In this document: piece after piece, positions 12,346 through 38,523 of the stretch
Layout: each line of letters opens with the position of its first letter
How positions within the stretch are numbered: position 1 is the stretch's first letter
The notes under the pieces: model-generated
Databases searched by the model: none
Told to the model about the DNA's origin: nothing
Seen by the model: the letters and a program-made list of their open reading frames with translations, nothing else
NCBI GenBank assembly: GCA_038231135.1
Contig: JBBRLX010000008.1
Span: 64,001 to 128,000 of the forward strand
Reading direction: 5' to 3'
DNA from: Candidatus Eiseniibacteriota bacterium
GTDB lineage: Bacteria > Eisenbacteria > RBG-16-71-46
Length of the DNA: 64,000 nt
Translations under genes and position numbers: made by a program

Positions 12346-15300
12346 CTATTTCAAGATGAGGACCGCGGGCACTCTCCGCACCGTCACCGCCCCCTGCGAC
12401 CCGACCGGAACGGTCACCACGCCGAGTACCGCCCGGCGGAACGCCTTTGCCGACGGGGCTTTCACAACGATCCCACCGCGCGGCACCCGCACTCCCTTAC
12501 CGATCCTCACCACCACGGAATCTCCCGATGCGTGCATCGAGTAGCTCAGGAGCCCGTGCGGCGTTGGCAAGTCTCGTACCGTGACGCCGGGTGATGTGTT
12601 CACCCACTCCAGCGGCACACCGGCGCCGATCACGAGCGCACTGTCCGCCTCGCGTTCGTAGGCGAACATGGTGAGCACCGAGCGCACGAAGTCCGAGCCC
12701 ACCCAGGTGTGTGGCATGTCGCCGATAAAGCGCGGGTGACGCGGATCGTGATCGACCACCTCGGCCCACTGGGCCCATCCCGCGGGGCGGCGGTACTTCA
12801 TGAACCAGTCGAGCGCCGCGTTCGCGCGATCGCGCCAGCCCAGCTCGACAAACGCGCCGATCGTCCTGACTTCATAGGGCGTGAAGGCGTCCCACGTGTC
12901 GGTCTTGCGGCGCGTTTCGAAAAACTCCCAGTACTTCTCGAACGTGCGTTGCAACGCTCCCGGGGGCAGCGCGGCCGCGGCGTCAACGGGGTCGAGCGCG
13001 ATCGTCGTCGACGTGGCGTCGAAGTCCCCGAGATCGGCGCAACCGGGGATGTAGTCGATGTGATGCTTCGCCATCGCGGCGCCGATCGACGCGCGCAGGT
13101 CACGCTGGAACTCGTCGCGGACGTTGCTCCAGCGCCTGCGCTCCGGCTCGCGGCCGGTGTACTGCGCGAGCCATGCGGCGTCCTTGAAGCCACGCAGCGC
13201 AAACAGGTCGTCCCAGTAGGAATGCATGGGCTTCGCCGAATAGCCCTCGTGGCTGATCGAGGGCGGCAGCAGGCCATGGAACTCGCGGTTCGCCGGAGTG
13301 CTCCATTCCCGCGTGAGGCGCTCGTGACGGAGAGAATCGAGGTACGTTGCCGCCCGCGCGACGACCGGCCACATCTTCACGGCGAATGCCCGGTCGCCGG
13401 TGTAGCGCACGTAGTCCGCGATCGCGAAGATCAGCTCGCCGCTGCTGTCGTGCTCGGGCACGGGATCGGCGCCGCGCGCGTCGACACAGCATGGCACCTT
13501 GCCGTTCGGGTACTGGTGCGCCGCGAACCACTCGACAAACTCGCGCACGGTCTTGGGGTCGCCGGTGCGCAGCAGCGCCGAGGACGTGAGTGCCCCGTCG
13601 CGAATCCACGACCGCTCGTAGGACCGCGAGCCGGGCTGGATCGCGGGGCCGTCGCGATTGACCTGAATCCAACCGATCTGGGCGTTCAGCGTACGCAGGA
13701 CTTCGGCGCCCGCCGGCGGCAACTCGATGTGCGGCAGGTGCAGTGCGGTATGCCAGTAGCTGGCGTCACCCAGCACGGGCTCCACCGACCGCAGGGACGA
13801 ATCCCGTGTCGCGCGGCTCCCGCCCATAGGTCTGATCGCCGCGATTCTCAGGAGGATCGTGCGGTCACCGTGCGCGGGCAACTCGAGGTCGTACGCCAGC
13901 GCACCCGACGCGTGGCCGAACGGATCGTCCACGCGCTGACTCTTCGGCAGCCTGTTTTCGCGCATGAACTCCACGATGTCGCCCTGATCGAACGTGGCCG
14001 CGCCGAATGCCGTGGGCGGCGTCAGGCTCGTGAGCACGCGATTGCCGTTCACGCGCACCATGCTGCCATTGCGCTCGAGGCTCATGATCGTCGCGACGCC
14101 GCCCGGGGTGTTGAGGAACTGGGTCGGCGGATTCACCTGGAACGGCCGCATCGCCAGATTCAGGGTCGCGCGTACGGGAACGTCGCTCAGGTTCCGCACG
14201 CGATAGCTCAGCGCGAACGCGGCTTCACCGTCGATGTGCGAACCCTCATTCAGACCGAAGGCGGTGGTCTCGAGCTCGAGACTGTCGACACGCCACGTCA
14301 CGATCGGAATCGGCAGGTCGCCATCCTCCAGCGACTGCCGCGACGTTACGTCCGCCCACGTCCTCAGCCTGCCGCCGACGCGCAGGAACGGCTCGATCGA
14401 GAACTGCGCCTTGCCCGTCTCGAACGCGCCGTCCTCGCCGAGCAGACCCTCGTCGCGATCGCCCATGAGCCCGACCACGGCCCAGTAGGATTGCTCGCCG
14501 CTCAGGCCGCGGGGGTAGCTGCCGCGCGGGGCATGCTTCGCGATCGCGGCGTAGAAGTTCTCGAGCGTCGCGCCGAACTCGAGCGGCTGGAGCGCCAACT
14601 CGGCGATACCGATGCCGCGGGCGGCCGGCGCCTCCAGGGTCCTCACGCTCAGGAAGCGGGCTTCGGACTCAGGCAGCCACAGCCAGTCGCGGCCGCCGTT
14701 GCCGTTCCTCACCGTGCGCAACTCCGTCCAGCGCCGGGCATCGGTCGAGCCCTCGACCCCGTAGTTCGAGGCCGAGAGATTCGGCCCCCAATCGATCACG
14801 AGGCCGCCGAACTCACGCCCCTCCCCCAGATCGAGCGTGAGCGCAGGCCGTGGATCGCCTGGGGCACTCCGCCACCACGTGGCGACCGCGCCGTCGGCAG
14901 CGAGCGCCGGTCTATGCGCGGGGGCGGACGACGACGCGCTGGCCCGCGGCTCGGGTGGCGTGCCACCGGCAGGGCGCAGCGTTTCGATCGACAGGTCGTC
15001 GAGCCACACGGTGCCCTTGCCGCCGGTGCCGGCGGTGACCGCGAATTCGATCGCCGCGACATGTCGCAGCTCGCCCGGGTTCGGGCCCCACGCGAACGAG
15101 ATCTGACGCTGCTTCGTGGCCAGCGTGTCCCAGTGGGCGGGGAACGCGAGCCGGCGGCGGTTGTACCACCACACGTCGTCGCCGCTCGCGTCGATCAGCT
15201 TGAATTCCAGATCGTTCGGCGTGCACGTGCCCTTCACCGTGAACCGGAACTTGTAGTTCTGGGGCACGTCGAATGACACCGCGCGATGCGCAACGGCGTA

Positions 15301-15573
15301 ACCACCGCCCCCGCCGAAGTCGAAGTCAAGCCGCAGCGCCTTGCCGTGTGCGCCGGCGTCGCTGCTCAACTTCAGCTTTACGCCATCCGCGGGGTGCGCG
15401 GACCAGGCGGAGATGTCTTCGAAGTCGTCGATCGTGGTGCGCGAGCCGATGGCCGTCGCGACGGGCGTGGTGACGGCGAAGGCGGGCGCGGCAGCGGCAC
15501 TCGCGGCGGCGGCGCTGGCGGCGGCGCACATCACCAGCGTCACGACAACTCCGCCGGTCACCGACAGCCTCAT
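12346..15573 (-). CDS. Secreted multidomain putative glycoside hydrolase: CBM11/CIA30-like + F5/8 type C (discoidin) + (alpha/alpha)6 catalytic domain
   Basis: Signal peptide from ATG 15573 (ATGA overlap with the permease); ASASS..ALAADG..TWWRS..LTLDLG discoidin pattern; QPGSRSYERSWIRDG, EHDSSGE, SISHEGY..HSYWDD, WAEVV..FIGDMPH. Confidence 0.8.
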   Translation of the reverse strand: MRLSVTGGVVVTLVMCAAASAAAASAAAAPAFAVTTPVATAIGSRTTIDDFEDISAWSAHPADGVKLKLSSDAGAHGKALRLDFDFGGGGGYAVAHRAVSFDVPQNYKFRFTVKGTCTPNDLEFKLIDASGDDVWWYNRRRLAFPAHWDTLATKQRQISFAWGPNPGELRHVAAIEFAVTAGTGGKGTVWLDDLSIETLRPAGGTPPEPRASASSSAPAHRPALAADGAVATWWRSAPGDPRPALTLDLGEGREFGGLVIDWGPNLSASNYGVEGSTDARRWTELRTVRNGNGGRDWLWLPESEARFLSVRTLEAPAARGIGIAELALQPLEFGATLENFYAAIAKHAPRGSYPRGLSGEQSYWAVVGLMGDRDEGLLGEDGAFETGKAQFSIEPFLRVGGRLRTWADVTSRQSLEDGDLPIPIVTWRVDSLELETTAFGLNEGSHIDGEAAFALSYRVRNLSDVPVRATLNLAMRPFQVNPPTQFLNTPGGVATIMSLERNGSMVRVNGNRVLTSLTPPTAFGAATFDQGDIVEFMRENRLPKSQRVDDPFGHASGALAYDLELPAHGDRTILLRIAAIRPMGGSRATRDSSLRSVEPVLGDASYWHTALHLPHIELPPAGAEVLRTLNAQIGWIQVNRDGPAIQPGSRSYERSWIRDGALTSSALLRTGDPKTVREFVEWFAAHQYPNGKVPCCVDARGADPVPEHDSSGELIFAIADYVRYTGDRAFAVKMWPVVARAATYLDSLRHERLTREWSTPANREFHGLLPPSISHEGYSAKPMHSYWDDLFALRGFKDAAWLAQYTGREPERRRWSNVRDEFQRDLRASIGAAMAKHHIDYIPGCADLGDFDATSTTIALDPVDAAAALPPGALQRTFEKYWEFFETRRKTDTWDAFTPYEVRTIGAFVELGWRDRANAALDWFMKYRRPAGWAQWAEVVDHDPRHPRFIGDMPHTWVGSDFVRSVLTMFAYEREADSALVIGAGVPLEWVNTSPGVTVRDLPTPHGLLSYSMHASGDSVVVRIGKGVRVPRGGIVVKAPSAKAFRRAVLGVVTVPVGSQGAVTVRRVPAVLILK

Positions 15574-16391
15574 CCCTTGACGCTCCCCAGCATCACGCCG
15601 CGGATGTACGCGCGCTGCAGCACCAGGAACACTGCCATGACCGGCAGCAGCGTGAGCACGCTGCCCGCCATCATGAGCTCGGTGTCCTGCACGTGCTCGC
15701 CGACGAGGTTGGCGAGCGCGACGGGCAGCGTGTACTTGCGGTCGTCGCTGAGGATGATCAGCGGCCACATGAAGTCGTTCCACATGCTGAGGAAGATGAA
15801 CGTGGCGAGCGTGACGAGGATCGGCTTGAGCAGCGGCATCACGATGGTCCAGAAGATCCGCAGCTCGCCGGCGCCGTCGATGCGCGCGGCGTCGAGCAGG
15901 TCGTCGGGGATCGACAGCGCGTACTGGCGCACCATGAAGATCGCGAAAATCGGCGCCAGCCCGGGGATCATGGCGCCCCACAGCGTGTTCACGAGTCCCA
16001 TTTTCTGCAGCATCAGGAACAGCGGCAGCATGCCGACCTGGCCGGGGATCACGAGCGCCGCGAGCAGCAGCCGGAACGTCGCCTCGCGGCCGGTGAACCG
16101 CAGCTTCGCGAACGCGTAGCCGGCCATGCTGTTCAGCAGCACGGCGATCGCCGTGGTGCCGACCGCGACGATCGTGCTGTTCAGCAAATGCCGCGCGAGG
16201 TCGAGCCGCGTGAACAGCGCAATGTAGTGGGCGAACGTGGCGTGGCTCGGCAGCAGCCGCGGCGGGAACGTGTTCGCCTCGCCCGCGGGCATGAACGACG
16301 CCGACAGCATCCACAGCAGCGGCGCCAGTGTGGCGACCACGCCGAGCGCCAGCAGCACGTGCAGTACGAACGACGGGGCGGCGCGCTTCAT
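15570..16391 (-). CDS. Carbohydrate ABC transporter permease (MalG-like)
   Basis: EAA loop SIPDDLLDAARIDGAG; WNDFMWP. Confidence 0.95.
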   Translation of the reverse strand: MKRAAPSFVLHVLLALGVVATLAPLLWMLSASFMPAGEANTFPPRLLPSHATFAHYIALFTRLDLARHLLNSTIVAVGTTAIAVLLNSMAGYAFAKLRFTGREATFRLLLAALVIPGQVGMLPLFLMLQKMGLVNTLWGAMIPGLAPIFAIFMVRQYALSIPDDLLDAARIDGAGELRIFWTIVMPLLKPILVTLATFIFLSMWNDFMWPLIILSDDRKYTLPVALANLVGEHVQDTELMMAGSVLTLLPVMAVFLVLQRAYIRGVMLGSVKG

Positions 16392-17279
16392 TCAGGCCTC
16401 GCTCCGGCGCTGGATCTGGAGCTGGATCATGGTGCCGATCAGCATGATCACGAACAGCACGAACGCGATCGCGGCGGCGACGCCCATGCGCCACCAGCGG
16501 AACCCCTCCTGGTACATCAGCAGCACGACGGTGGTGGTGCTCTTGAGCGGGCCGCCCTGAGTCATGACGTAGGGCTCGGAGAACAGCTGGAACTGGCCGA
16601 GCATCGTCAGCACGCACACGAACAGCAGCGTGGGTCCCAACCCGGGCAGCGTGATGTGGCGGAATCGCGCCCAGCCGCTGACGCCGTCGAGATCCGCGGC
16701 CTCGTACTGCTCGTCGGGAATGCTCTGCAGGCCGGCGATGAAGATCAGCATGTTGTAGCCGAAGTTCTTCCACACCGCCATCAGGATGATCGCGGGCATA
16801 GCCCAGTGCGGGTTGCCGAGCCAGTCGATCGGCTTGATGCCGAACTGCCCGAGCGCGAAGTCGATCAACCCGTACTGCGGGTGATAGAGGTAGCGCCACA
16901 CGATCGCCACGGCCACCAGCGTGGTGACGACGGGCACGAAGAACACCGAGCGGAAGAACGCCTGAAACCGTGTGAGGCGCGAGCTGACGGCCATGGCGGC
17001 GAGCAGCGACGCCAGCACCGACAGCGGCCCGCCCACCACCACGAAGTAGAACGTGTTGCCGAGCGCCTTCCAGAACTCCGGGTCCGACAGGATGCGCGCG
17101 TAGTTCCCGAGGCCCTGAAACCGCACGTTCGAGAGATCACCGATGGCGTAGAGGTCGAAGTCGGTGAGGCTCAGCACCAGCCCCGCGATCACCGGCAGGA
17201 AGAAGAATACGGTGATCAGGCCCAGCGAGGGCGCGACGAACGCCCAGCCGGCGCGGGTTTCCTGGCGCTCCCCTTTCAC
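16392..17279 (-). CDS. Carbohydrate ABC transporter permease (MalF/UgpA-like)
   Basis: LQSIPDEQYEAADLDG; FRHITLP; MTQGGP. Confidence 0.95.
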   Translation of the reverse strand: MKGERQETRAGWAFVAPSLGLITVFFFLPVIAGLVLSLTDFDLYAIGDLSNVRFQGLGNYARILSDPEFWKALGNTFYFVVVGGPLSVLASLLAAMAVSSRLTRFQAFFRSVFFVPVVTTLVAVAIVWRYLYHPQYGLIDFALGQFGIKPIDWLGNPHWAMPAIILMAVWKNFGYNMLIFIAGLQSIPDEQYEAADLDGVSGWARFRHITLPGLGPTLLFVCVLTMLGQFQLFSEPYVMTQGGPLKSTTTVVLLMYQEGFRWWRMGVAAAIAFVLFVIMLIGTMIQLQIQRRSEA

Positions 17280-18592
17280 GGCTGCCCCGCCGCCGTATGG
17301 CGCGCGCGCTCGAGCATCCAGCGGCGCTTCTCGAGCATCTGGTTCACGTCGCGATCGAGCGCCGCCAGCGCCGAATCGGGCGGCACGTGGCCCAGCACCA
17401 CCGACTCAACGCGGTCCTGCAGCTTCACCGAGATCTGCTCCCACTCGGGCACCTTGGGCGTCGACACGGTTCGGGTGAGCTGCTGCTCGAACGCACGCAG
17501 GTGCGGATCGTTGGTGAGCGCGGTGTCGCGCCACGCCTCGCGCCGCGCGGGCAGGTCGCCAGTGAGGGAACGGAACCGGAGCTGCTGCTCCGGCCGCGAC
17601 AGGAACTCCACCAGCTTCCACGCCTCAGCCTTGTGCTTCGAGGCGCGGAACAGCACGAGGCTCGAGCCGCCGGCCACCGACACGCCGGGGCCGTCGGGCC
17701 CGGGCAGGGCCGCCGTCTCCCACGACGACTGCATCGCGGGCGAGATGCGGTTGCGGAACTCGCCGACCTGCCATGGGCCGCTGATGTACATCGCGAACGT
17801 GCCCCGCTCGAATTCCTGGTAAAGGTTCGCGATCGCGGTACCCGGCACGCGCGGCGCCAGGTCACGCTGGAACAGGTCGATGTAGAACTGCATCGCGCGG
17901 CGGTACGCCGGCCCCTCGAAATCGCCGTGCGTGCCCGTCGAATCGAGCAGTGTCGATCCGGTCTGGAGGCCGAACACGATCCACGGCGTGTATTCATTGG
18001 TCGGCAGGAAGATCGCGTAATGATGCGGCCCACCCTGGCGTTTGATGACCTCCATCGCCTGGCGCCAGTCGGCCCAGTTGGAGGGCATCTCGCGATACCC
18101 GGCGCGGGCGAGCAGGTCCTTGCGATAGAACAGCAGGCGCGTGTCGACGTACCACGGAATGCCGTACGGCACGCCGTCGAGCACGTTGGTGTCCCAGATG
18201 CCGGCGAAATACGCGCTCTCGGGCACGGCGGTGGACGCGCGCAGATAGGCATCGAGCGGCTCGATCGCGTGGAGCGCGCCGAATTCCGCGATCCAGGTGT
18301 TGCCAAGCTGCGAGATGTCGGGCGTGGAGCCGCCGACGTGGGCCGTGAGCAGCTTCTCGTGTGCGGCGCCCCACGGAATCTGCTGGACGAGCACATGGAT
18401 ATTTGGATTCTCGCGCTCGAAGTCGTGCACCAGATCCTGCACCACCTCGCCCTCGCGGCCCATGGCCCAGAACCGCAGCGTGACGGGGCCGGGGCCGGAC
18501 TGCGGGTGGCAGCCGGCGAGCGCGGCGCAGGCGAGCAGCAGCATGATCGCCGCCGCGTGGGCCAGTCGCACGGTCGAATGGGGTCGCATCAT
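17276..18592 (-). CDS. Sugar ABC transporter substrate-binding lipoprotein
   Basis: Lipobox LAGC; FWAMGREG; YGIPWYVDTRLLFYRKD; AGGSSL. Confidence 0.92.
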   Translation of the reverse strand: MMRPHSTVRLAHAAAIMLLLACAALAGCHPQSGPGPVTLRFWAMGREGEVVQDLVHDFERENPNIHVLVQQIPWGAAHEKLLTAHVGGSTPDISQLGNTWIAEFGALHAIEPLDAYLRASTAVPESAYFAGIWDTNVLDGVPYGIPWYVDTRLLFYRKDLLARAGYREMPSNWADWRQAMEVIKRQGGPHHYAIFLPTNEYTPWIVFGLQTGSTLLDSTGTHGDFEGPAYRRAMQFYIDLFQRDLAPRVPGTAIANLYQEFERGTFAMYISGPWQVGEFRNRISPAMQSSWETAALPGPDGPGVSVAGGSSLVLFRASKHKAEAWKLVEFLSRPEQQLRFRSLTGDLPARREAWRDTALTNDPHLRAFEQQLTRTVSTPKVPEWEQISVKLQDRVESVVLGHVPPDSALAALDRDVNQMLEKRRWMLERARHTAAGQP

Positions 18593-18659
18593 GGGACCTG
18601 CACGCAACACCGGAGGGGCCGCATCGCCGGACCTTACCGCAACGCCGTCCGTGCCCGCA

Positions 18660-20150
18660 TCATCGCGGCGCCCGGTCCAGCCAGCCGCCCGTAAATCCCG
18701 CGGCGCGCAGGCCGCGGATGACGTGCGGGTTCTTCCGCATCGTGCGCCACACCAGGTCCGAACGATAGTTCTCGGTCATGGCGAGAATTGGACCCTCGTC
18801 GATGCCGAGGTAGTCGGTGTCGTACCAGCCGGCGCCCTGGACCACGTGGCCGGCGGAAACGCCGGCGGCGGAATCCCGCAGCGTAGGATTCACGGCGTCG
18901 ACGAACCCGTAGCGTGTGAAGCCGGCGTCGCCGAAGCGATCGCGCATCGCGACCAGCGTCGGCACCACGATCTCGGGCGCGAACGCGATCGAGCCGCCCG
19001 CGGCGCTCGGCGAGATCGTGCCGTCATCGCGCACCGTGTTGAACGTCGCGCCGCGCGGCCAGTAGGTGTGGAACTCGCGTGATCGGCCCGCGATCGTCCG
19101 GGTGCCGTCCAGCGGTCCGTCGCACGCGGTGAGTCCCCACATCCGATCCCCGTAGCCCGCCCAGTTGGCCGGGTTGTCGATCGCATAGGCATGCTGCGCC
19201 AGCGTCGCGCGCCGCGAGTTCTCGAAGTAGTCGAGCCCGCGCGCGCGCATGACGCTGTCGCGGATGCCGCGGAAGTCGACCCAGATGTGCGTGTACTGAT
19301 ATCCGAACAGCGGGGCGAACCCGAGGTAGTCCTGGCCGTGGAACGTGCCCCACTTGTAGCCCTCGGTGTAAGCCGTCCACGTCTTCGGGTGCACCCGGTG
19401 TGTCGTCGAGCCCAGCGCCAGGATCTGCACCAGCATGGTCTCGTTGTAGCCGCGCCAGTCGTACGGCAGGTGGCCGTGCTCCGGATCCCAGCCCAGCACG
19501 ATCGTGGGCGGCCGGATCTGGGTCCACGTCCAGTCGGCGCGGTCGTAGAGCGAATCGGCGATCGCGCGAATTCTCGCTTCCCGCGGATTCGCGCGATCGA
19601 AGTACGACTGGCAGAACAACGCACCCGCGAACAGCAGCGCCGAATCCATCGTCGACAACTCGACGTCCTTGAAGCGCGCGCCGGTCTCGGGCACCAGGAA
19701 GTGATAGAAGAATCCGCGGTAGCCGGTGCTGCCCGCCCGAGCGGTGTCCTCCCGCGCGGTCCAGAAGAACTCCAGCGTGCGGAGCACGCGCTCGGCGGCA
19801 GCCTCGCGCGTGACGTAGCCGCGCTCGGCACCGATCGGGTAGGCGGTGAGCGCGAACCCGACCGCGCCCACGCTGATGAACGATTGCGTCGGCCAGCGGT
19901 CGGGCGTGAGCCCGCGCAGCGAATCGCTCAGGTCCCAGAAGAATCCGAACGTGCGGCGCTCGAGCGTGTCGAGGAACGCGGTCTGGCGCGCGCTCGGAAC
20001 GAACTTGCGTGCGGGAGCCGTGGGCGTCGCGGTGGCGCCGCCGGCGTGGGCCATCGTCGCGGGCTGGCAGCCGGTGGTGATGAACAGCGCGGCCGCCATG
20101 GCGACTGCCAGCGCCCAGGCCGCGGGCGCGAGACTGGTCCGCACCGTCAT
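18660..20150 (-). CDS. Putative endo-beta-1,2-glucanase (GH144 / 'glucoamylase family' PF10091-like), probable lipoprotein
   Basis: Signal ending TTGC; GLTPDR, ELSTMDSALL, WRGYNE, PLFGYQY, YFENSRRATLAQ, WGLTACD, YLGIDEGP. Confidence 0.85.
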   Translation of the reverse strand: MTVRTSLAPAAWALAVAMAAALFITTGCQPATMAHAGGATATPTAPARKFVPSARQTAFLDTLERRTFGFFWDLSDSLRGLTPDRWPTQSFISVGAVGFALTAYPIGAERGYVTREAAAERVLRTLEFFWTAREDTARAGSTGYRGFFYHFLVPETGARFKDVELSTMDSALLFAGALFCQSYFDRANPREARIRAIADSLYDRADWTWTQIRPPTIVLGWDPEHGHLPYDWRGYNETMLVQILALGSTTHRVHPKTWTAYTEGYKWGTFHGQDYLGFAPLFGYQYTHIWVDFRGIRDSVMRARGLDYFENSRRATLAQHAYAIDNPANWAGYGDRMWGLTACDGPLDGTRTIAGRSREFHTYWPRGATFNTVRDDGTISPSAAGGSIAFAPEIVVPTLVAMRDRFGDAGFTRYGFVDAVNPTLRDSAAGVSAGHVVQGAGWYDTDYLGIDEGPILAMTENYRSDLVWRTMRKNPHVIRGLRAAGFTGGWLDRAPR

Positions 20151-29754: not shown

Positions 29755-32492
29755 TGCCCCACCTGCATGCTGACGCCGAGCTGGACCTTCCGCGGCGCGA
29801 AGAACCGGGTCGGATTCGCGAGCTGATCCGCGTCACGGACCAGGTCCGCCGTGGGCGCGTAGTACGGGCTGCCGGTGGTGTCGAACACGTAGCCGTTGAA
29901 GTACCGGGTGTCGAACACGTTGAACACGCGCGCGAACGCGCGGACGGCCCCCGGGCCGCGGCCGAACGTCTTCTCGCCCCGCAGGTCCACGGCCATCGAA
30001 GCCGGGTGGCGTCCGGAGTTGTCCTCGAGCCCGAAGCCGAACCCGACAGCACGCACCGGAGTGTAGGGCTGGCCGCTCGCCACGCGTACGACGGCGCTCA
30101 AAGAGAACCCGCTGTCGCGCGACGCCTCGACCGTCGCGTTGAGCGTATGACGCTGGTCCCAGTTGAACGGCACCTGCCGCGGCCGCGGATCCTCGCCCGC
30201 CGACGCGCGGGTCGCGGTCTCGCGCGGGTCGCTGGAGTTGCCCTGCGCGAGCTGCCAGGTGTAGTCGATCGAGCTGCTGAACAGGCCACGGCGGCGCTGC
30301 GACAGCGCGATCGTCACTCCGGTCACGCCCCCGAAGTCCACGTTCGTGAGCCGCGCGTACTCGGCGCCGTTGTAGGTGGTGACGAACTGGACGCCCAGCA
30401 GGTCACGGATGTCCTTGTAGAAGATGCCGGTGTCGAGCCCGAGCCAGTCCGTGAGCCGCTGTTTGTAGCCGAACTGATACTGCACGGTCTTCTCGGGCTT
30501 GATGTCGGGATTGCCCATCACGCTGAAGTTCGGGACATCCGCCTGCAGATCGCTCAGCACCCCGTAGTTGGAATTGGTGAACACGTCGCCGATCGACGGC
30601 ATCTGGTAGAAGTGGCCATAGGCGAAGAACAGCGACGCGTCGCTCGTGACGGGGTACGACACGCCGACGCGCGGCGAGATCGAGTACTTGGCGGACGTGC
30701 GGACCGGATGCGACAGCGGCGCGCCCTGGATCGAGTTCGCGGGATTTTCGAGGTCGCTCGGCAGGCTGGACCGGGCGTCGAAGAAGTCGAACCGGAATCC
30801 CGCGCGCACGCGCAGGTCGTTCCACTCGCCATCCTCCTGCGCGAACGCGGCGCCGATCAGCGGCGAGTTGAGCTGAACGCCCGGAAATTTCGGCGGGTCA
30901 TGGTCGTAACGCGCGAGGAACTGCCGCCCGGTGAGGGAATCCGTCACGTACGACAGCACTCCGGGACTGCCGAATTTCACCTGCGGCCACTGCATCTCGG
31001 CGCCGAGCTTGAGCGTCTGGTCGCGGTTCACCTGGTGCGTGAACGACGACTTCGCCACGATCGCGTCGGTGTTCTGCTTGAACCGGTTGAGGTCCACGCC
31101 CTGGACGAACGCGTCGTACAGGAACCCGGGCACGTTCTTCGGCGGACCCGCGAGGTCGTAGCGCGGGTCGTACAGGTTGTCGAACGCGAGGTCCTTGTAG
31201 TCGAAGTAGTTCTGCCGCAGGCTCACGTTGTAGAACGTGGCCTTGCTGACCGTGTGCGTGACGTCGACGCCGTGCGCGACCGAGAACGTGTGCTGCCGGG
31301 TGAGACCCTCGGGGTCGAACCGGTAGTTCCAGTCGGCGCGGCGCGAGTCGATGTAGTTGACGATGGCCTGATAGCCGATCTCGACGTTCGGGATCGACCG
31401 ATTGGTGACTTTGCCGATGCCCGACCACTCGCGCGAGAAGCCGAGCGGCTCCTGGCCCAGGTCGCCGTCCGGGTTGGTGGCCTTGGCGACCGGATTCCCG
31501 GTCGGGGTCAGCCACGGCGTGTAGACCCGCGTGCCGCGCACGTAGTCGTCGAACAGGTGGTAGCTGCCGCTCGTCAGATACGTGGTCTTCGGCACGAACA
31601 GCGGGCCGCTGGCGCTGAGCTGGTAGTTCTGCTCGCCCGCCGGCCAGAACGCGTAGCGCGGCTGCGGGATGAATGACCGGAAGAACACCGGAGTCGAGGA
31701 CGGATCCCGGCGCGCCACGTCGTACAGGAACCCGCCGCTCAGCACCTCGCCGTCCCAGCGGAACTTCTCCGAGCCCCGCCGCAGCACCGCGTTCACGACG
31801 CCGCTCATCGCCTGGCCGTACTCGGCGTCGAACGTGCCGCTGATGACCTGTACCTCCTCGAGCAGCGAGCGGTCGATGCGCAGGCTCGACTTGTTGTCGT
31901 AGGCGTTGTTCACCGACACGCCGTCGACCTGGAACTGCACCTCGCCGCCGCGGCCGCCGCGGAAGTGCAGATCACCGCCCTGCGACACCACGCCCGCCTG
32001 GAGATTGACGATCTCCTGCAGCTCCTGCACCGGCAGGGCGTGGATCTGGGAGCGCGTGATCGTGGCGGTGCTTGACGTCTGCTTCAGGTCGACCACCGGG
32101 CGCTGCGCGCTGACGACGACCTCGGTCATCGCGATCGGCGCCTCGTCGAGCGTCACGTCGAGGGTCGCGGTGTTGTCGGCCGACACCTCGACGCCGGTGA
32201 CGGTCGTCGCGCGATAGCCGAGCAGCCCGACCTTCACGTCATAGGCGCCGGCGGGGATGTTGAGGATGACGTAGCGGCCGTCGGCATCGGTCAGGGCTCC
32301 CAACCGGGCGAGCGGCACTGCGATATTGACCCCGGCGAGCGGCTGCTTCTTCTTGTCGACCACGCGTCCCGACAGCTTGCCCGTGGTGCCGGCCAGCGCG
32401 GATGTGGAAATGGCCAGCCACCCCATGGCAAGCAGCACCCCCGCCATGGAGGACGCGCTGCGCAGCACAATCGACCGGTGCCCGGCGTTCAC
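29751..32492 (-). CDS. TonB-dependent receptor with N-terminal carboxypeptidase-regulatory-like domain
   Basis: GTTGKLSGRVVD N-domain; plug HFRGGRGGEVQFQVDGVSV and ISGTFDAEYGQAMSGVVN; GNPDIKPEKT; SD AGGGGAG before GTG 32492. Confidence 0.92.
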   Translation of the reverse strand: MNAGHRSIVLRSASSMAGVLLAMGWLAISTSALAGTTGKLSGRVVDKKKQPLAGVNIAVPLARLGALTDADGRYVILNIPAGAYDVKVGLLGYRATTVTGVEVSADNTATLDVTLDEAPIAMTEVVVSAQRPVVDLKQTSSTATITRSQIHALPVQELQEIVNLQAGVVSQGGDLHFRGGRGGEVQFQVDGVSVNNAYDNKSSLRIDRSLLEEVQVISGTFDAEYGQAMSGVVNAVLRRGSEKFRWDGEVLSGGFLYDVARRDPSSTPVFFRSFIPQPRYAFWPAGEQNYQLSASGPLFVPKTTYLTSGSYHLFDDYVRGTRVYTPWLTPTGNPVAKATNPDGDLGQEPLGFSREWSGIGKVTNRSIPNVEIGYQAIVNYIDSRRADWNYRFDPEGLTRQHTFSVAHGVDVTHTVSKATFYNVSLRQNYFDYKDLAFDNLYDPRYDLAGPPKNVPGFLYDAFVQGVDLNRFKQNTDAIVAKSSFTHQVNRDQTLKLGAEMQWPQVKFGSPGVLSYVTDSLTGRQFLARYDHDPPKFPGVQLNSPLIGAAFAQEDGEWNDLRVRAGFRFDFFDARSSLPSDLENPANSIQGAPLSHPVRTSAKYSISPRVGVSYPVTSDASLFFAYGHFYQMPSIGDVFTNSNYGVLSDLQADVPNFSVMGNPDIKPEKTVQYQFGYKQRLTDWLGLDTGIFYKDIRDLLGVQFVTTYNGAEYARLTNVDFGGVTGVTIALSQRRRGLFSSSIDYTWQLAQGNSSDPRETATRASAGEDPRPRQVPFNWDQRHTLNATVEASRDSGFSLSAVVRVASGQPYTPVRAVGFGFGLEDNSGRHPASMAVDLRGEKTFGRGPGAVRAFARVFNVFDTRYFNGYVFDTTGSPYYAPTADLVRDADQLANPTRFFAPRKVQLGVSMQVGQ

Positions 32493-32577
32493 GGGGCTCC
32501 CCTGCTTCATGCGTTCATGCGCGGCCGTGTCGATGGGAACGGGACGGGCACGCATGCCCGTCCCTCACCCGAAACTC

Positions 32578-34485
32578 TCACTTGAGAACCAGCATCTTGC
32601 CGGCCAGTGAACCCCCCGCGGCTCCGGTCACGGGATCCGTGATCCGCAGCCGGTACAGATAGATCCCGGCGCCGAGGCCATTGCGGGCGAACGACGACTT
32701 GCGGTCACCCGCCAGCTGGAGCCCGAAGTCGCGGTGCGTGACGATGCGGCCCTGCAGGTCGAACACCTCGAGCCGCACCTTGGACGCACGCGGCAGAGAG
32801 TACTGCATCACCGTAAGCTGGCGGAACGGATTGGGATAGTTGCCGATCAGCGCCAGTCTCGCCGGCAGCGCACCCGGATCCCCAACCCCGCTGATGAACG
32901 AGTTCACGTCGAAGTAGGCGGTGGCCGGACAACATTCGTCCTCGTATTCACGCCCCCACCACGTGCGCGTGCCATAGCTGTCGGTGATGGGACTGAACGA
33001 GTCGCCGTCGAGCATGTCGATGCCGATGTAGAGCGGCAACGCGCTCAGGCCGTGCGGGAAACCGAGTGCCGTCATGTTGATCGCGAGCTCGGCGGTATAG
33101 CCCTGATCGGGCGTCGTGCCCGTGGTGTCGACCGTGGTGCCGGGCTTGAGCTTGAGCGCGATGCGCGCCGCGTGCGCGGTGTCGCGCAGGAACGGCAGGT
33201 AGTCGTCGAGCAGCAGTGAACCGCCGGGTCCGACATGGAAGCCCAGCCGCCGCGAGATGCGCGTGCGGTCCTTGCTGCGGGCAACGGCGGTGTCCTGGAT
33301 CGTGACGATGAACCCGTCCCAGCGGTCGAACAGCGGGTGCGTCTGCACCACCTGATCGCGCACGTCGAAGCCGATGTAGAACGTGTCGGCCTTGAATGCC
33401 CAGTGAATCGTGGCATCACCGGGATCGACGACCGGCGCCAGGCCACCGTTCACCGGGGGCTGGTAGAAACCCGCGCGCCACTTCATCACGCCGGGATAGG
33501 TGTTGCGCACGTCGAAGTCGCCGTAACGCATGTCGAAGTGCTGGGAGGTCTGCCACGCGGCATCGGTGAGGAAGCCGTCGATCACCGGCGGCGGGTAGTT
33601 GCCGAGGTTGGGAATCCGCACCTCGGGACCGATGGTGGGCACCGCGCCGGACGCGACGTTCACGTCGGGGCGCGCCATGATGCGCACTTCGTCGTAGTTC
33701 ATCTGGTTGCCCCACGGCCCCTGCCACCATGCGCGGTTCACGCTGAACCGCGCGCCGTTGAGCGGCCACAACCAGTCGGTGTCGTAGATCGACAGGTTCC
33801 ACTCGATGATGTCGCCGTTGGCGGCCGATGGCGTGTACCCCATGCGTCCGACGTCGATGCGCATCTCGATCGTGTAACCCGAATCGGGCGAGGCGTCGGT
33901 GTTCGACTGGCCGCCGCGCACCTTCGTCACCGCGTCCCAGGCCTGGATCTCGTCGGCGGTGCGAGCGGTGGAATCGTTGTTGGAGCTCCAATAACCGCGG
34001 AACGAGGGGACCGCACCCGGGGCGTTCAGCGCCGGGATGTCCGGATGCCACCACGAATAGAAGTATTCGACCGGGCCATGGATCGAGGCGTTGGGATCAC
34101 GATGATCCTTGAGCGCCATCAGGATGCCGTCGAACCGGTTGAAGTCCACCGAGCCGCCGACCGAGCTGTCCCGGCACGTGATGCCAAGGTACAGCTGGTC
34201 GCCGCTCACGAGGAACTTGACGGTGGCGGACGTGCTGTCTTTCGCGATCTTGCCGGCTTCCTCCTTGAAGCCGCTGCCGGGGTCGCCGTTGTCGACGCCG
34301 TAGCGGATCGTCCAGCTCTGGGCGGTCGCCCACGCCGGCTCGCCCAGCACGCCGTCCAGTGTGATCGGCTGGCCGTTCGTGTTGCGCGCCCAGATCGCAT
34401 CCTGGCGCGGCGCCTGCGCGAAGGATGGCATCGCCAGCGCCGTACAGGCGCCCGCGAGCAAAAATACCGACAGGATCCGCTTCAT
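32578..34485 (-). CDS. Secreted protein with two CBM9/DOMON-like domains and a T9SS-like CTD
   Basis: Signal peptide and SD AGGAGGAG; ITLDGVLGEPAW...GYTIEMRI and VIDGFLTDAAW...GYTAELAI; CTD GNYPNPF..VFDLQGR..GIYLYRL. Confidence 0.8.
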   Translation of the reverse strand: MKRILSVFLLAGACTALAMPSFAQAPRQDAIWARNTNGQPITLDGVLGEPAWATAQSWTIRYGVDNGDPGSGFKEEAGKIAKDSTSATVKFLVSGDQLYLGITCRDSSVGGSVDFNRFDGILMALKDHRDPNASIHGPVEYFYSWWHPDIPALNAPGAVPSFRGYWSSNNDSTARTADEIQAWDAVTKVRGGQSNTDASPDSGYTIEMRIDVGRMGYTPSAANGDIIEWNLSIYDTDWLWPLNGARFSVNRAWWQGPWGNQMNYDEVRIMARPDVNVASGAVPTIGPEVRIPNLGNYPPPVIDGFLTDAAWQTSQHFDMRYGDFDVRNTYPGVMKWRAGFYQPPVNGGLAPVVDPGDATIHWAFKADTFYIGFDVRDQVVQTHPLFDRWDGFIVTIQDTAVARSKDRTRISRRLGFHVGPGGSLLLDDYLPFLRDTAHAARIALKLKPGTTVDTTGTTPDQGYTAELAINMTALGFPHGLSALPLYIGIDMLDGDSFSPITDSYGTRTWWGREYEDECCPATAYFDVNSFISGVGDPGALPARLALIGNYPNPFRQLTVMQYSLPRASKVRLEVFDLQGRIVTHRDFGLQLAGDRKSSFARNGLGAGIYLYRLRITDPVTGAAGGSLAGKMLVLK

Positions 34486-34610: not shown

Positions 34611-35708
34611 TCAGCGAAACTCTTCGGTGCGCCGCTCGCGCGTCGCGGTGGTCATGCTCCCGCCGGCGGCGAACGGCTCGCCGGCGCGTGATTGCGGGGT
34701 GATCGCCCGGGCGGATCCGCAGGATTGCCGGATCACGAGACTGGTGGGCAGCACCTCATGGCGGTGCGCCTCGGCCGGCGCGCCCGCGCGCGTGCGGTGC
34801 AGCAGCCGCTGCAGCGCTCGCGCACCTAGCTGAAACCGGTCCACGCGCACGGTCGAGAGCGGCGGCGACAGATAGCGCGCGGTCTCGATGTCGTCGAATC
34901 CGGCGACGGCCATGTCGTCCGGCACGCGCACGCCGGCCTCCGCCAGTGCGCGCAGCACGCCCACGGCCATGTGATCGTTCGCCACGAACACCGCGGTCGG
35001 CCGCGGATCGAGAGCGAGCAGCGCCGCCACCGCCTGATAGCCCGACGGTTCCGTGAAGTCGCCGGCGAGCTCGAGTCGGCGCGACCGCTCCGCCCCCACC
35101 TCGCGCAGGCCGGCGCGGTAGCCGGCGAGGCGCTGGCGCGCGTCGACGTTGCGCACGGGACCGGACACCGTGGCGATCGAGCGATGGCCGAGCGAGAGCA
35201 GGTGCTGGACCATCGCCTGGGCGCCCTCGACGTTCGCGATCGCCACGCTGTCGTGTTCGGTGAATTCGGTGCGCGGGTCGATCAGCACGATCGGCACGTC
35301 GCCGGCCCAGCCGCGGATCGAGCCCATGGATTCGACGTCCGGAGCCATCACGACCAGGCCGTCGATGCGGCCGCGCATCGAACGCAGCGCCGACGCCAGC
35401 TCGTCGATGCCCGAGTGCGAGCTCGACACCAGCAGGTGGAAGCCCTCGCGGCGGGCCGTGACGTCGAGGCCGCGGATGACGCCCGAGAAGAACTCGCCAT
35501 GGAGGTCGGGCAGCAGCACCCCGAGCGTATGGGTGCGGTTCGTGATCAGACTGCGCGCCATGGCGTTGGGCCAGTAGTTGAGGCGCGACGCGACGGCGCG
35601 GACCTGGCTCTCGGTCGTGGTGCTGACGAGACCCTTGTCATTGAAAACGCGCGAAACCGTGGCAATCGAGACGCCTGCCTCGCGAGCCACGTCCTTGATG
35701 GTTGCCAC
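34611..35708 (-). CDS. LacI family transcriptional regulator
   Basis: ATIKDVAREAGVSIATVSRVFN HTH; YWPNAMARSL; AGFDD; GTG start with SD GGAG. Confidence 0.96.
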   Translation of the reverse strand: MATIKDVAREAGVSIATVSRVFNDKGLVSTTTESQVRAVASRLNYWPNAMARSLITNRTHTLGVLLPDLHGEFFSGVIRGLDVTARREGFHLLVSSSHSGIDELASALRSMRGRIDGLVVMAPDVESMGSIRGWAGDVPIVLIDPRTEFTEHDSVAIANVEGAQAMVQHLLSLGHRSIATVSGPVRNVDARQRLAGYRAGLREVGAERSRRLELAGDFTEPSGYQAVAALLALDPRPTAVFVANDHMAVGVLRALAEAGVRVPDDMAVAGFDDIETARYLSPPLSTVRVDRFQLGARALQRLLHRTRAGAPAEAHRHEVLPTSLVIRQSCGSARAITPQSRAGEPFAAGGSMTTATRERRTEEFR

Positions 35709-35788: not shown

Positions 35789-35824
35789 GATGTAAACGAT
35801 TACACCGAGACCGAATCATGTCAA
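35789..35824 (-). promoter_or_regulatory. LacI-type operator 1 (TGTAAACGATTACA, 35791-35804) beside a TTGACA -35 element upstream of the lacI-family gene
   Basis: Near-palindrome TGTAA-A-CG-A-TTACA; TTGACA on the minus strand at 35824-35819; identical copy at 38487. Confidence 0.85.
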
Positions 35825-35847
35825 CCGAAGCGTGTCCCGGGGGGAGG

Positions 35848-35934
35848 TGAACAACGGCCCGCCCGACTGGGGCGGGCCGCTGCGTCACCCGATTCCCGCC
35901 TCCGGGATCCGGCGGTTGCCCGCCGGATCCGGAG
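35848..35934 (-). terminator. Two hairpins downstream of the 35946-38285 gene; the distal one is followed by TTGTT
   Basis: GGATCCGGCG..CGCCGGATCC (35905-35930) and CGGCCCGCCC..GGGCGGGCCG (35855-35879). Confidence 0.6.
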
Positions 35935-35945
35935 CGGAAGCGGAA

Positions 35946-38285
35946 TTACTCGATCACCACCGCGCGGGTGGTGAGGCTCTTCGCACCCTGCGTCAGGCGC
36001 ACCATGTAGACACCCGGACGGAGCGCAGCACGCGCGCCGAACGAGATCGAATGGTTGCCCGCACCCAGCGTACCGACCTCGCGGAACGCCACCTGGCGGC
36101 CCGTCACGTCGTACAGCCCGAGCGTCGCGCGCTCGCGGGTGGGAAGGCTGAAGTTCACGTTCATCGGACCGCGCGCCGGATTCGGCATGATGCCGCGGAG
36201 CGCGAACGACACCGCGACGTCACCCACACCGGTCGTCGAGTGGATCGTGAACGGATCGCTCACGGCGTACTCGGATTCCGTCACCGGACCGAGATCGTCC
36301 ATCGAGATTGCGTCGATCGACAGCCGCGCCGTACCCGTCTGCGTCTGCGGCACCGTCCACGCGTAGTGACCGGTGTTGGGCAGGCCCTGGGCTTCGATCT
36401 GCCACGTCTGACCATCGTCGAACGACGACATCAGCGTGACCGACTGCACCTGCATGTCGGCCGGCGTCTGCCAGTCCACCGATGCCGTGGCACCGGCGGT
36501 GAGCACCGCTCCCGCCACCGGCGAGATCAGCTGCGGCGCGCTCACGTTCACGTTCTCGATCGCCTCGAAGCAGCCACCACCGAGATCACCCGTCACCAGA
36601 ATCGGTGAGCTACCGGAGTGCAGAGTAGCCTTGACGTCCGAGCGCAGGAAGCGGATGCGCAGCGTCGCGCCGCCGTTCTCGAGCTTCGGTCCCGGCGACG
36701 TCACCGGTGACACGCCGTTCAGCGTAATGGTCGAAGGGTTGATCTGGGCCGCCGTCGCGGGAGCCGTCGGCGTGAGCAGCACGGTGATGAAGTGGCTGTT
36801 TGAGCGGAGGTTCAGGTCGTGGGGCTTGAAGTCGAGCGCCACTTCCGCCGGCGTGAGGCAGGTGCTGGTGAACCGGATGTTGCTCCAGGTCGCCTTCACC
36901 GCGACGTCCAGGCCGTTGCCCAGGCGCGGCTGGAAGTACCCGCCGACGCGCGCGTCGTTCAGGATGCCCCACACGCCGTGCTGTGCTTCCTCGGCCAGGT
37001 TGCCCTTGTCGAACGACAGCGGCCCGCTGGTGTAGTTGGTTCCCTGATAGCCGACACCGTACGTGACCGTCCCGCCGTCACCGTCGGTGAGGGAGTGCGG
37101 ATCGTAGCTGACTTCGAGATGGATCACCTGTCCCGCCGCGTAGTGAATTCCGAACGCGGCCGTGAACGAGTAGAACGGCAGCCGTCCGCCGAACACGGCA
37201 ACTTCGCCGTCCGGGGTGCGCACGTTGAACCGTCCGTCCACGTCCTGCGAGAACCACGGCGCGATCCGGAGCCCGGCCTCACCGTTGCCGGTGCCGGAGA
37301 TCACGAGATCGGTCGAGTAACGGAACTCCGAGTTGTTGTTGAAGATCGCGCCGTCGGCGCCGTTCTCGGAGAAGCTCCAGTTGTGCAGGTTCGCGAATCC
37401 GAAGCAGTCGAGATGCGCGTCCTCGATCGAGATCAGGCTCGGATAGTTGTTCGTGACCGTGACCGTGGAGGTCGGGCAGTCGTTGAAGATACGGGTACGG
37501 GTGACCGCGCTGTTCGGCACCGGAGTGGTCGAATACGCGATGTTGTTCCATGACGCGGCGGTCGTGACATCGACGCCGTTCGCGAGCCGCGGCTGGAAGT
37601 AACCGCCGACCTGCGCCGTGTTCAGGATGCCGTACAGGCCGTGCGGCGGATCCTCGGCCGGGTTGGCCTGGTCGAACGGCAACGGGCCGCTCGTGTACGA
37701 CGTGCCCTGGTAGTCCACCGTATAGATGATGGTGCCCGGAGCGCCGGCGTTGAGCGAATGCGGATCGTATTCCATGCCGAGGCGGATCGTCTGGCCCTTG
37801 GCGTAGTGCAGGCCGAACGCGGCCGTGAACGAATAGAACGGCAGCCGGCCGCCGAAGCAGGCGATTTCGCCGTCGGGCGTGCGGATGTTGAAGCGGCCGT
37901 CGACGTCGGGGGAGAACCACGGCGAAATCTGGAGCCCGGCTTCGCCGTCACCGCTGCCGTTGATCGCGACGTCCGCGGAGAACCGGAACGACGAGTTGTT
38001 GTCGAACTGTGCCGACGTTGCGCCACCGTCCGCGGAGAAGTGCCAGTTGTGAAGATTCGCGAACCCGAAGCAGTCGAGGTGCGCGTCTTCGATCTTGACC
38101 GAACTGGGGTAGTTGTTCGTGACCGTGATCGTAGAGGTGGGACAGTCGTTGAAGATTCGCGTCTTGACGATCGCGCTGTTCGGCACCGGGTTCGGAGCGG
38201 CAACCGCGCTCACGACGAGTCCCACGGCCGCGACCAGCGCCAGCGTGGCACCGGTTACGAAGCTCCTGGGTGTGATCCGCTTCAT
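35946..38285 (-). CDS. Secreted protein with a tandemly duplicated 222-aa unknown domain, Ig-like domains and a T9SS/FlgD-Ig-like CTD
   Basis: Signal peptide and SD GGAGG; two copies of PVPNSA..TRIFNDCPTST..HLDCFGFANLHNW..FGGRLPFYSFT..VGGYFQPRL; CTD MPNPAR..LYDVTGRQV..GVYMVRL. Confidence 0.88.
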   Translation of the reverse strand: MKRITPRSFVTGATLALVAAVGLVVSAVAAPNPVPNSAIVKTRIFNDCPTSTITVTNNYPSSVKIEDAHLDCFGFANLHNWHFSADGGATSAQFDNNSSFRFSADVAINGSGDGEAGLQISPWFSPDVDGRFNIRTPDGEIACFGGRLPFYSFTAAFGLHYAKGQTIRLGMEYDPHSLNAGAPGTIIYTVDYQGTSYTSGPLPFDQANPAEDPPHGLYGILNTAQVGGYFQPRLANGVDVTTAASWNNIAYSTTPVPNSAVTRTRIFNDCPTSTVTVTNNYPSLISIEDAHLDCFGFANLHNWSFSENGADGAIFNNNSEFRYSTDLVISGTGNGEAGLRIAPWFSQDVDGRFNVRTPDGEVAVFGGRLPFYSFTAAFGIHYAAGQVIHLEVSYDPHSLTDGDGGTVTYGVGYQGTNYTSGPLSFDKGNLAEEAQHGVWGILNDARVGGYFQPRLGNGLDVAVKATWSNIRFTSTCLTPAEVALDFKPHDLNLRSNSHFITVLLTPTAPATAAQINPSTITLNGVSPVTSPGPKLENGGATLRIRFLRSDVKATLHSGSSPILVTGDLGGGCFEAIENVNVSAPQLISPVAGAVLTAGATASVDWQTPADMQVQSVTLMSSFDDGQTWQIEAQGLPNTGHYAWTVPQTQTGTARLSIDAISMDDLGPVTESEYAVSDPFTIHSTTGVGDVAVSFALRGIMPNPARGPMNVNFSLPTRERATLGLYDVTGRQVAFREVGTLGAGNHSISFGARAALRPGVYMVRLTQGAKSLTTRAVVIE

Positions 38286-38484
38286 GATTCCTCCAGTGAA
38301 GAGGTGTGGGGTGATGCGCAACGCGGATCCAGCAATCGGATCCTTCGGATCCGTTTCCGACGCGCGACTCGCAGGGACGTGTCGGGAGCGAGGGGGCCTG
38401 CATTCCTCGCACTCAACACGTCGCGAACATATCTGCCTGTCGCCTTCGGGAATCTAGGCGTCGGCGCAGCGCGCCCCGGCCTTC

Positions 38485-38523
38485 GATGTAAACGATTACA
38501 CAACCGTGTTGTGGGAGCGTCAA
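38485..38523 (-). promoter_or_regulatory. Sigma70-type promoter TTGACG-N17-TGTAAT with LacI-type operator 2 (38487-38500) covering the -10 element
   Basis: Minus strand TTGACG CTCCCACAACACGGTTG TGTAAT CGTTTACA; 17-bp exact match to operator 1. Confidence 0.85.

Follow-up and report, generated by a model that had tools for sequence, protein, structure and literature searches.

A cluster of 13 genes in a genome of Candidatus Eisenbacteria probably serves (probability about 0.8) to scavenge beta-1,2-glucans made by other bacteria, by way of an exported GH144 enzyme, a TonB-dependent receptor with a large surface protein (g05), a second GH144 of lipoprotein type, ABC import, phosphorolysis in the cytoplasm and a GH1 enzyme, under a LacI-family regulator. 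An earlier note on this DNA had proposed the same substrate and route, which at the level of sequence are well supported by homology, clan residues, synteny and operators, whereas its description of the system as complete and undescribed fails. We infer the substrate as well as the cell locations of the proteins. In the proposed route, the exported GH144 would cut beta-1,2-glucan outside the cell and the receptor would import the pieces, helped by g05 on its own PorV-like barrel; the lipoprotein GH144, then the ABC importer and the cytoplasmic phosphorylase would process the imported pieces, and GH1 likely hydrolyses the final sophorose. LacI would control the locus, with sophoro-oligosaccharides as the presumed releasing ligands.

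Organisation of the locus

Gene calls and profile searches in the window (the whole stretch of 64,000 nucleotides analysed) place the 13 genes on the minus strand, running from 38285 to 12346, with the following features:

38485..38501, no strand: operator 1, lying about 200 nt upstream of g01; imperfect palindrome TGTAAnCGnTTACA
35946..38285, minus: g01, 779 aa; signal peptide, an unnamed domain of about 230 aa present twice, Ig-like domain, T9SS type A tail
35789..35805, no strand: operator 2, lying about 80 nt upstream of lacI; same sequence as operator 1
34611..35708, minus: LacI-family regulator, 365 aa (profile)
32578..34485, minus: g03, 635 aa; signal peptide, CBM9-like region, T9SS type A tail
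29751..32555, minus: TonB-dependent receptor, up to 934 aa (profiles); true start probably somewhat downstream
26434..29751, minus: g05, 1105 aa; signal peptide, beta-supersandwich, FN3/Ig-like domains, PorZ-like C-terminal tail
25418..26437, minus: PorV/PorQ-family barrel, 339 aa (NF033709, 180.8 bits against a cut-off of 90)
23781..25364, minus: g07, GH144, 527 aa; likely exported endo-beta-1,2-glucanase with signal peptide and type A tail (T9SS)
20147..23698, minus: g08, 1183 aa, GH94 of the Cgs type standing alone; lacks a signal peptide and is probably a 1,2-beta-oligoglucan phosphorylase of the cytoplasm
18660..20150, minus: g09, GH144, 496 aa; lipoprotein-type signal (lipobox read by eye), likely periplasm-facing
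17276..18592, minus: ABC solute-binding lipoprotein, 438 aa (profile, PDB sequence search)
16392..17279, minus: ABC permease 1 (Pfam/NCBIfam profiles)
15570..16391, minus: ABC permease 2 (Pfam/NCBIfam profiles)
12346..15573, minus: g13, 1075 aa, with a signal peptide but without a T9SS tail; CBM11-like domain, CBM32-like domain, beta-supersandwich and (alpha/alpha)6 barrel
8630..9985, plus: GH1 beta-glucosidase (Pfam/NCBIfam profile), linked but outside the operon

As the earlier note had it, the 13 genes are co-oriented and many overlap at stop and start: five of the 12 junctions do so (by 4 nt in four cases and by 1 nt in the fifth), one is abutting, and the remaining six leave gaps of 22-237 nt. 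A longer version of the last gene starting at 16899 (1517 aa) was dropped because its additional part runs across the permease genes in another frame and homologues have their start at 15573, the position adopted for g13. A repeat search of the window recovered the duplication in g01 and the paralogy of the GH144 genes and did not pick up the operators; a sigma-70 scan of 34300-38800 returned no promoters.

Among the cluster genes no ABC ATPase and no TonB/ExbB gene is annotated, and to call the system complete was an overstatement, since ATPase, ExbB and T9SS genes sit elsewhere in the genome: SprA, PorU and ExbB-type genes are present away from the locus, and the UgpC/MalK ATPase, found in a single copy, presumably serves the permeases in trans. 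In relatives searched for ugpC, it lies inside the locus in 3 of 40. The GH1 gene that had been counted as part of the system is indeed linked, but it lies outside the operon and the span of the cluster, on the plus strand, with three genes in between; it overlaps a Ser/Thr kinase gene at the stop of the latter, and no operator-like site was found in its upstream region. Among relatives, 18 of 24 loci showed a GH1 gene in the DNA retrieved.

Regulation and conservation

The claim of two identical operators holds, with 17-bp copies (GATGTAAACGATTACAC on the plus strand) at 35789-35805 and 38485-38501. Their 14-bp core occurs at exactly two sites in the 4.09-Mb assembly, the chance expectation from base composition being about 0.0009 per genome, and a search of the assembly to two mismatches gave no further site; in this genome no operator precedes GH1, ugpC, the inner genes or the cyclic glucan synthase gene. 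The regulator is the sole match of its query in the assembly. The motif is also present upstream of module starts in the reshuffled loci of relatives and three times in Xanthomonas sacchari, one copy there preceding ugpC; in 12 of 12 loci checked, no operator was found upstream of ugpC.

The earlier note had named two outcomes that would speak against it, a lack of co-occurrence in relatives and a preference for other linkages. The cluster genes do co-occur across Ca. Eisenbacteria, and nothing in the sequences pointed to another linkage. Counting assessable loci only, adjacency in relatives was kept for g03 and the receptor (11/11), the receptor and g05 (12/12), g05 and the barrel (13/13), the barrel and GH144 (14/14), and the permease and g13 (23/23). 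For GH144 and the binding protein adjacency was scored in 21 of 24 loci, and the three misses are cross-hits: in two the genes are truly adjacent, and the third locus has the other GH144 only. Of 51 relatives common to both searches, which are kin and not independent, 36 carry full g05 and g13, 14 neither, one g13 only and none g05 only.

Enzymes, importer and the source of the glucan

Both g07 and g09 contain the PF10091 domain and have their closest solved relatives in GH144, the best being XcSGL (PDB 8xul; E 3e-155 and 2.9e-108), whose clan residues E239, F286 and Y367 align to E, F and Y in both proteins (alignments, counted by hand). XcSGL from Xanthomonas is beta-1,2-glucan-specific, and the clan residues were defined in the same work (PMC12102758). 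Likely, then, g07 and g09 are beta-1,2-glucanases. In g08, two supersandwich domains are combined with a catalytic barrel carrying GDWND; the protein is closest to the C-terminus of Cgs, the linker between its sandwiches measures about 80 aa as against about 215 in Cgs, and it corresponds to the free C-terminal phosphorylase part of a cyclic glucan synthase. The L. phytofermentans phosphorylase structure was absent among its best 20 PDB sequence matches. As for the binding protein, PDB matches are led by 3uor from Xanthomonas (E 1.5e-137) and Lin1841 (E 5.7e-66), the next following at 4e-38, and Lin1841, the sophoro-oligosaccharide binder of Listeria, is its closest characterised relative. Assuming the numbering offset, the third-glucose contacts D193 and Q197 of Lin1841 seem to be replaced by P and Y, and the chain-length preference may therefore differ.

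That the genome encodes its own full cyclic glucan synthase (2841 aa, contig C16) makes recycling possible in this genome, and the synthase is likewise present in 24 of 45 relatives with g13. Nevertheless, recycling of endogenous cyclic beta-1,2-glucan leaked from the periplasm, as opposed to use of that of neighbours, seems unlikely as the main task of the locus: the N-terminal half of the synthase has no match in 21 of these 45 relatives, several with a completeness of 98-99%, and this speaks for scavenging rather than self-recycling. Moreover, four relatives have the synthase and lack g13, the synthase gene is without an operator, and an outer-membrane receptor together with exported enzymes points to a glucan source outside the cell; the two uses are compatible with each other. 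Slightly less probable still is a different or mixed glucan, e.g., one with beta-1,3 linkages or a periplasmic glucan with branches, for which g13 would be the central enzyme: g13, g01, g03 and g05 are uncharacterised and the closest folds of g13 are alpha-glucan enzymes, yet GH144, Cgs-type GH94 and the Lin1841-like binder each independently indicate beta-1,2. The scavenging of foreign beta-1,2-glucan remains the preferred reading.

Export and accessory proteins

The T9SS type A tail (TIGR04183) scores above its cut-off in g01, g03 and g07, and the SprA translocon, the PorU sortase and eight PorV-family barrels are all found in the genome; the secretion genes for the T9SS-like export proposed earlier lie outside the locus. 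For the GldLM/PorLM motor (TIGR03517) the genome gave no match, and neither did control genomes. Of the accessory proteins, g01 is likely an exported accessory binder and g03 likely an exported binder. In most relatives g01 is single-domain; its domain of about 230 aa has no Pfam match, and the Atlas gave weak-information leads only. PF06452 was detected at E<=0.1 in 12 of 16 g03 orthologues (best 2.9e-6) and not in g03 itself, for which PDB sequence searches yielded nothing useful.

The receptor, g05 and g13

The earlier description of the locus as SusD-less is borne out. PF07980 (SusD_RagB), the only SusD model searched genome-wide, was found in none of 61 genomes, with the control positive, and the locus has no tandem susD, g05 matching no Pfam or NCBIfam family and having a beta-rich fold; the receptor reaches 61.8 bits against the SusC-family model TIGR04056 (cut-off 368), over its N-terminal part only, and thus falls outside SusC. 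The g05 gene is translationally coupled to both the receptor gene and the barrel gene. In the g05 model, which is of moderate confidence (pLDDT 75), the tail resembles that of PorZ (Z 11.0, rmsd 2.3, 88 residues), and a Foldseek search with the whole protein returned FN3 chains only. Complex prediction gave 0.90 for the g05 tail with the barrel and 0.00 for the best of three controls, although the score may stem from a resemblance to PorV-cargo complexes of known structure; at least 89% of contacts are shared between runs, the partner pLDDT is at least 76, and the mark applied to such scores is reached by 116 of the 157 pairs with a solved structure and by 2 of the 215 mismatched ones. The tail of g05 is thus predicted to bind the PorV-like barrel. 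At the receptor, g05 would probably take the part of SusD.

With respect to the last gene, g13 is likely an unclassified, periplasmic, GH15-like six-hairpin glycoside hydrolase. Its fold matches those of dextran dextrinase (9ju0), glucoamylase (1lf6), glucodextranase (1ulv) and MmpH (7qsj) with Z 27-31.6, and it shares with GH15/six-hairpin enzymes the supersandwich and (alpha/alpha)6 barrel and has a WIRD motif, but it is only 12-18% identical to them and carries extra CBM-like domains. No family reaches its cut-off in the barrel (TIGR01577, 32.8 bits vs 820), no GH15 Pfam match places g13 in that family by sequence, its profile scored a probability of 1.3% against one annotated GH15, and the Atlas assigned the core to unnamed clusters with GH78/GH63-like leads. 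No variation was seen at E776 and E938 (72 of 72), which lie in loops after helices 5 and 11; GH15 enzymes have their acid and base glutamates in loops after these helices, and the two residues may be candidates for that role. With 2772 relatives among 7991 candidates scored, g13 is a common partner of GH144 and occurs in Xanthomonas as well; it may remove a linkage or substituent beyond the reach of GH144.

With a little less than even odds, we propose that receptor, g05 and barrel form a three-part capture machine replacing SusD in SusD-lacking phyla and that g13 founds a new family of inverting glycosidases, opening odd linkages (alpha-1,6 ring closure, side branch) of natural periplasmic glucans for GH144 and GH94 to finish. 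The alternative of g05 being an enzyme of the cell surface or an adhesin of general use on its barrel, with no lid-like role at the receptor and with SusD-free uptake as in Xanthomonas, is plausible enough to be weighed, albeit not the favoured one. Its N-terminal fold resembles the supersandwiches of GH15/GH65/GH94 proteins (Z 13-15.6) and a GH174 endo-fucanase (Z 12.0), many acidic residues are invariant, and the Xanthomonas and Croceibacterium loci have a receptor and lack g05. However, the model has no catalytic barrel behind the supersandwich, and the coupling to receptor and barrel as well as the constant position after the receptor argue for a role of g05 there. Elsewhere in the genome, two further receptors are followed by a different protein of 1000-1080 aa with a similar tail and then by a PorV-family gene, an arrangement which suggests a general receptor partner. 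Neither the trio nor g13 had been singled out in the earlier note.

Comparison with known systems

The overall route has already been proposed for a related bacterium, and g01, g03, g05 and g13 are unstudied. For the SGL cluster IALB_1177-1187 of Ignavibacterium album, Kobayashi et al. (2022, PMC8861115) speculated on the same path from the outside to the cytoplasm, in the order secreted GH144, TonB receptor, GH144, ABC, Cgs-type GH94, so that the architecture was not new, all the more as Xanthomonas has a SusD-less locus with receptor, GH144 and ABC genes. Like the I. album cluster, the present locus combines two GH144s, a TonB-dependent transporter, a Lin1841-like ABC binder and a stand-alone Cgs C-terminal GH94. 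I. album has in addition a GH35 transglycosylase (IALB_1185), matched by none of the present 13 genes, whereas the linked GH1 is a difference from its description; the available portion of that text makes no mention of T9SS tails, a PorV-like barrel, operators or a g13-like enzyme, and unassigned I. album genes could still be g05 or g13. In the literature searched, with incomplete coverage of subscription papers, figures and supplements, no description was found of the trio, of g13 or of the tailed g01 and g03. For the pathway, it is a modest advance that a phylum without cultured members joins the known users of beta-1,2-glucans from bacteria; with a trio whose substrate can be guessed at good odds, a SusD-independent capture machine becomes directly testable, and an activity of g13 would fill a gap in the breakdown of natural cyclic and branched glucans.

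The Xanthomonas locus (XCC2207, coding for XcSGL, and its X. sacchari counterpart) shares LacI, a TonB receptor, GH144, the binder, two permeases, a g13 homologue (43%), the absence of SusD, the separate ATPase and the operator motif. However, a 25-kb region of X. sacchari is without g01, g03, g05, PorV-like barrel, tailed GH144 and GH94, and the Xanthomonas receptor gave no tblastn match to the present one at E 1e-8. The clusters lin1839-1843 of Listeria innocua and sgr_2423-2427 of Streptomyces griseus have a Lin1841-type binder with permeases and a phosphorylase or beta-glucosidase for sophoro-oligosaccharides but, being Gram-positive, no outer-membrane step (PMC13731917, PMC12369401).

In SusC/SusD loci, too, the receptor gene is directly followed by that of a large exported partner within a glycan locus. 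However, g05 is no TPR lipoprotein and has a secretion tail and its own barrel, and the receptor lies far below the SusC cut-off; in the available text of a SusC/SusD review, T9SS or PorV occurs nowhere (PMC13543919). The T9SS is known to pair cargo with barrels, e.g., PorP with PG1035 and SprF with SprB (PMC9143113), the cargo being kept on the surface by a dedicated barrel encoded alongside. This likeness to g05 goes with the difference that the present barrel belongs to the PorV/PorQ family and is encoded after a TonB receptor, within an operon for nutrient use. PorZ-PorQ and PorU-PorV are further pairs of this kind.

The locus is, at a probability that we put at about 0.8, a real beta-1,2-glucan utilisation locus of a published type, ordinary in outline, and it carries components that remain unstudied.

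Layout, operators and accessory proteins

In the assembly, which has a size of 4.09 Mb and is 93% complete, the window belongs to contig C8, and the thirteen co-oriented genes and two identical operators reported in the earlier note are both present according to gene and operator coordinates:

38285 to 12346, minus strand: 13-gene cluster; of its 12 junctions, 5 are overlapping and 1 is abutting
38485 to 38501: operator copy upstream of the first gene, g01
35789 to 35805: identical operator copy upstream of lacI

The operator is an imperfect palindrome of 17 bp, and an assembly-wide search for its 14-bp core with up to 2 mismatches allowed found no further copy. By matrix score, a third strong operator-like site (25.9 vs 28.4 for both cluster sites; next best 16.6) is located at C19:25367 of the same genome. 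It lies about 40 nt upstream of the minus-strand gene C19:25325-15315, possibly a distant regulon member, which codes for a 3336-aa protein with FG-GAP, FN3, LamG and Ig domains and a weak match to a T9SS tail.

Among 16 orthologues of the accessory protein g03, 12 are CBM9-like. The domain repeated in g01 (35946-38285) has no name; its family counts 424 members at E <= 0.001, which exchange their C-terminal tags. A pattern script assigned the 58 top members to short TWG tails (16), PEP-CTERM (6), T9SS-like tags (8) and others (28), several of the latter resembling missed cases. The TWG tail also terminates 19 ORFs in this genome, including the one at window positions 10068-11072.

Enzymes, binder and substrate

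In a PDB sequence comparison, the best solved relative of both cluster GH144s is XcSGL of Xanthomonas campestris, described in the available text of PMC12102758 as a beta-1,2-specific enzyme from a clan defined by three residues. Counted by hand on alignments, all three are kept in both GH144s, of which one carries a T9SS type A tail and the other a lipoprotein-type signal, the signals being judged by eye. The closest relatives of the ABC binding protein are 3uor, from Xanthomonas, and Lin1841, from Listeria; two known contact residues of the latter are apparently replaced. Taken together with GH94, three independent families thus point, at the level of sequence relationships, to beta-1,2-glucan as the substrate. 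Two further GH144-family genes are found at C44:13144-11657, flanked by a patatin-like gene and a phosphoglucomutase, and at C19:72799-74076.

The genome also encodes a full cyclic glucan synthase. As the cluster GH94, of the stand-alone Cgs type, is only 47% identical to it, descent of the former as a recent fragment of this synthase is ruled out by the sequence comparison. Over recycling of the cell's own glucans, scavenging is favoured as the more general role of the locus, since no synthase match was obtained in 21 of the 45 relatives that have g13, although this genome has one.

Conservation across relatives

The last cluster gene, g13 (1075 aa), has matches in 47 of 61 genomes searched, one of them weak, and its closest relatives with named records are mostly Ca. 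Eisenbacteria. DNA around g13 was fetched from 24 relatives selected for long contigs. In a same-genus genome the order of the 13 genes is identical, both operators are present and GH1 is directly convergent. In the present genome GH1 lies on the opposite strand and outside the operon. Three minus-strand genes of lower G + C content (0.60) between GH1 and g13 (10068-12292; NHL propeller, small coiled-coil protein, DUF347) are therefore likely an insertion. A Ser/Thr kinase-TPR gene and GH1 overlap at the stop codon of the former (window positions 6819-9985), and in the same-genus genome GH1 again comes after a kinase-TPR gene.

The other relatives show a rearranged locus in which two blocks stay fixed, g03-receptor-g05-barrel-GH144 and GH144-binder-permeases-g13, while LacI, GH94, GH1 and g01 change place around them. 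Adjacency inside the blocks was kept in 11/11, 12/12, 13/13, 14/14, 22/22, 23/23 and 23/23 cases and at one junction in 21/24, where the misses are cross-hits, and the operator accompanies block starts. Both searches covered 51 relatives: g05 and g13 occur together at full length in 36, neither occurs in 14 and only g13 in 1, counts that do not amount to a statistical test because the genomes are kin. In the loci of five relatives (L027, L035, L039, L043, L062), g13 is followed by a convergent GH94 of another kind, with 37-40% identity and a match to one sandwich.

Functions encoded elsewhere

The 13-gene cluster contains no ABC ATPase, and the single UgpC/MalK-type gene of the assembly lies on C3 with no operator before it. 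Its service to the cluster permeases in trans is supported by the presence of ugpC inside the locus in 3 of the 40 relatives searched for it. Outside the cluster, the genome encodes SprA and PorU and has eight PorV-family loci as well as three ExbB-type genes; a GldM motor profile matched neither this genome nor the control genomes. None of the 61 genomes gave a match to SusD_RagB, the control being positive.

The receptor trio and g13

The putative surface protein g05 has no Pfam or NCBIfam family, and its orthologues are better conserved than those of the receptor (mean 67% vs 58%). Its model (pLDDT 75) contains a beta-supersandwich, whose best match has Z 15.6 with rmsd 3.7 over 243 residues, followed by FN3/Ig-like domains and a tail like that of PorZ (Z 11.0 with rmsd 2.3 over 88 residues). 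A complex between this tail and the neighbouring barrel is predicted, scoring 0.90 vs 0.00 for the best control, with contacts agreeing between runs to at least 89% and a partner pLDDT of at least 76. Among solved pairs, 116 of 157 attained the mark applied, against 2 of 215 among mismatched ones; a passing score may stem from likeness to solved complexes. A precedent for cargo retained by a dedicated barrel is given in the available text of PMC9143113. The gene coupling and two additional trios of this kind in the same genome lead us to infer that g05 may act at the receptor as SusD does. Sets of a receptor, a large tailed protein and a PorV-family protein are located at C3:98206-105768 and C35:13247-6011, ordered as in the cluster, and at C2:96265-89211, with the barrel ahead of the large protein.

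In the g13 model, which is confident (pLDDT 90.7), two CBM-like domains are accompanied by a supersandwich and a six-hairpin barrel. Its nearest fold relatives are enzymes of the GH15 type (Z 31.6 with rmsd 3.7 over 560 residues, 12% identity), shortly followed by GH116, GH65 and GH78. E776 and E938, invariant in 72 of 72 sequences, occupy what we take to be the positions of the GH15 acid and base. The preferred reading of g13, at somewhat below even odds, is an inverting hydrolase acting on an alpha-linkage or branch, and Xanthomonas-type natural cyclic glucans have one alpha-1,6 bond according to the available text of PMC13731917. That receptor, g05 and barrel form a three-part capture machine replacing SusD and, jointly, that g13 represents a new inverting family opening odd glucan linkages comes close to an even chance.

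Comparison with known systems

No paper was found on either the trio or g13 within an incomplete literature coverage, and term counts in the available text of a 2026 review of glycoside transporters (PMC13543919) gave no mention of T9SS or PorV. The novelty claimed for the architecture as a whole fails, because Kobayashi et al. 2022 (PMC8861115) describe in the available text a cluster of Ignavibacterium album that encodes a pair of GH144s together with a TonB-dependent transporter, a Lin1841-like binder and a Cgs C-terminal GH94; the route on which they speculate is the same. Xanthomonas sacchari, in turn, resembles the present locus in LacI, a receptor and the block GH144-binder-permeases-g13, and has the same operator motif three times, one of them before ugpC.
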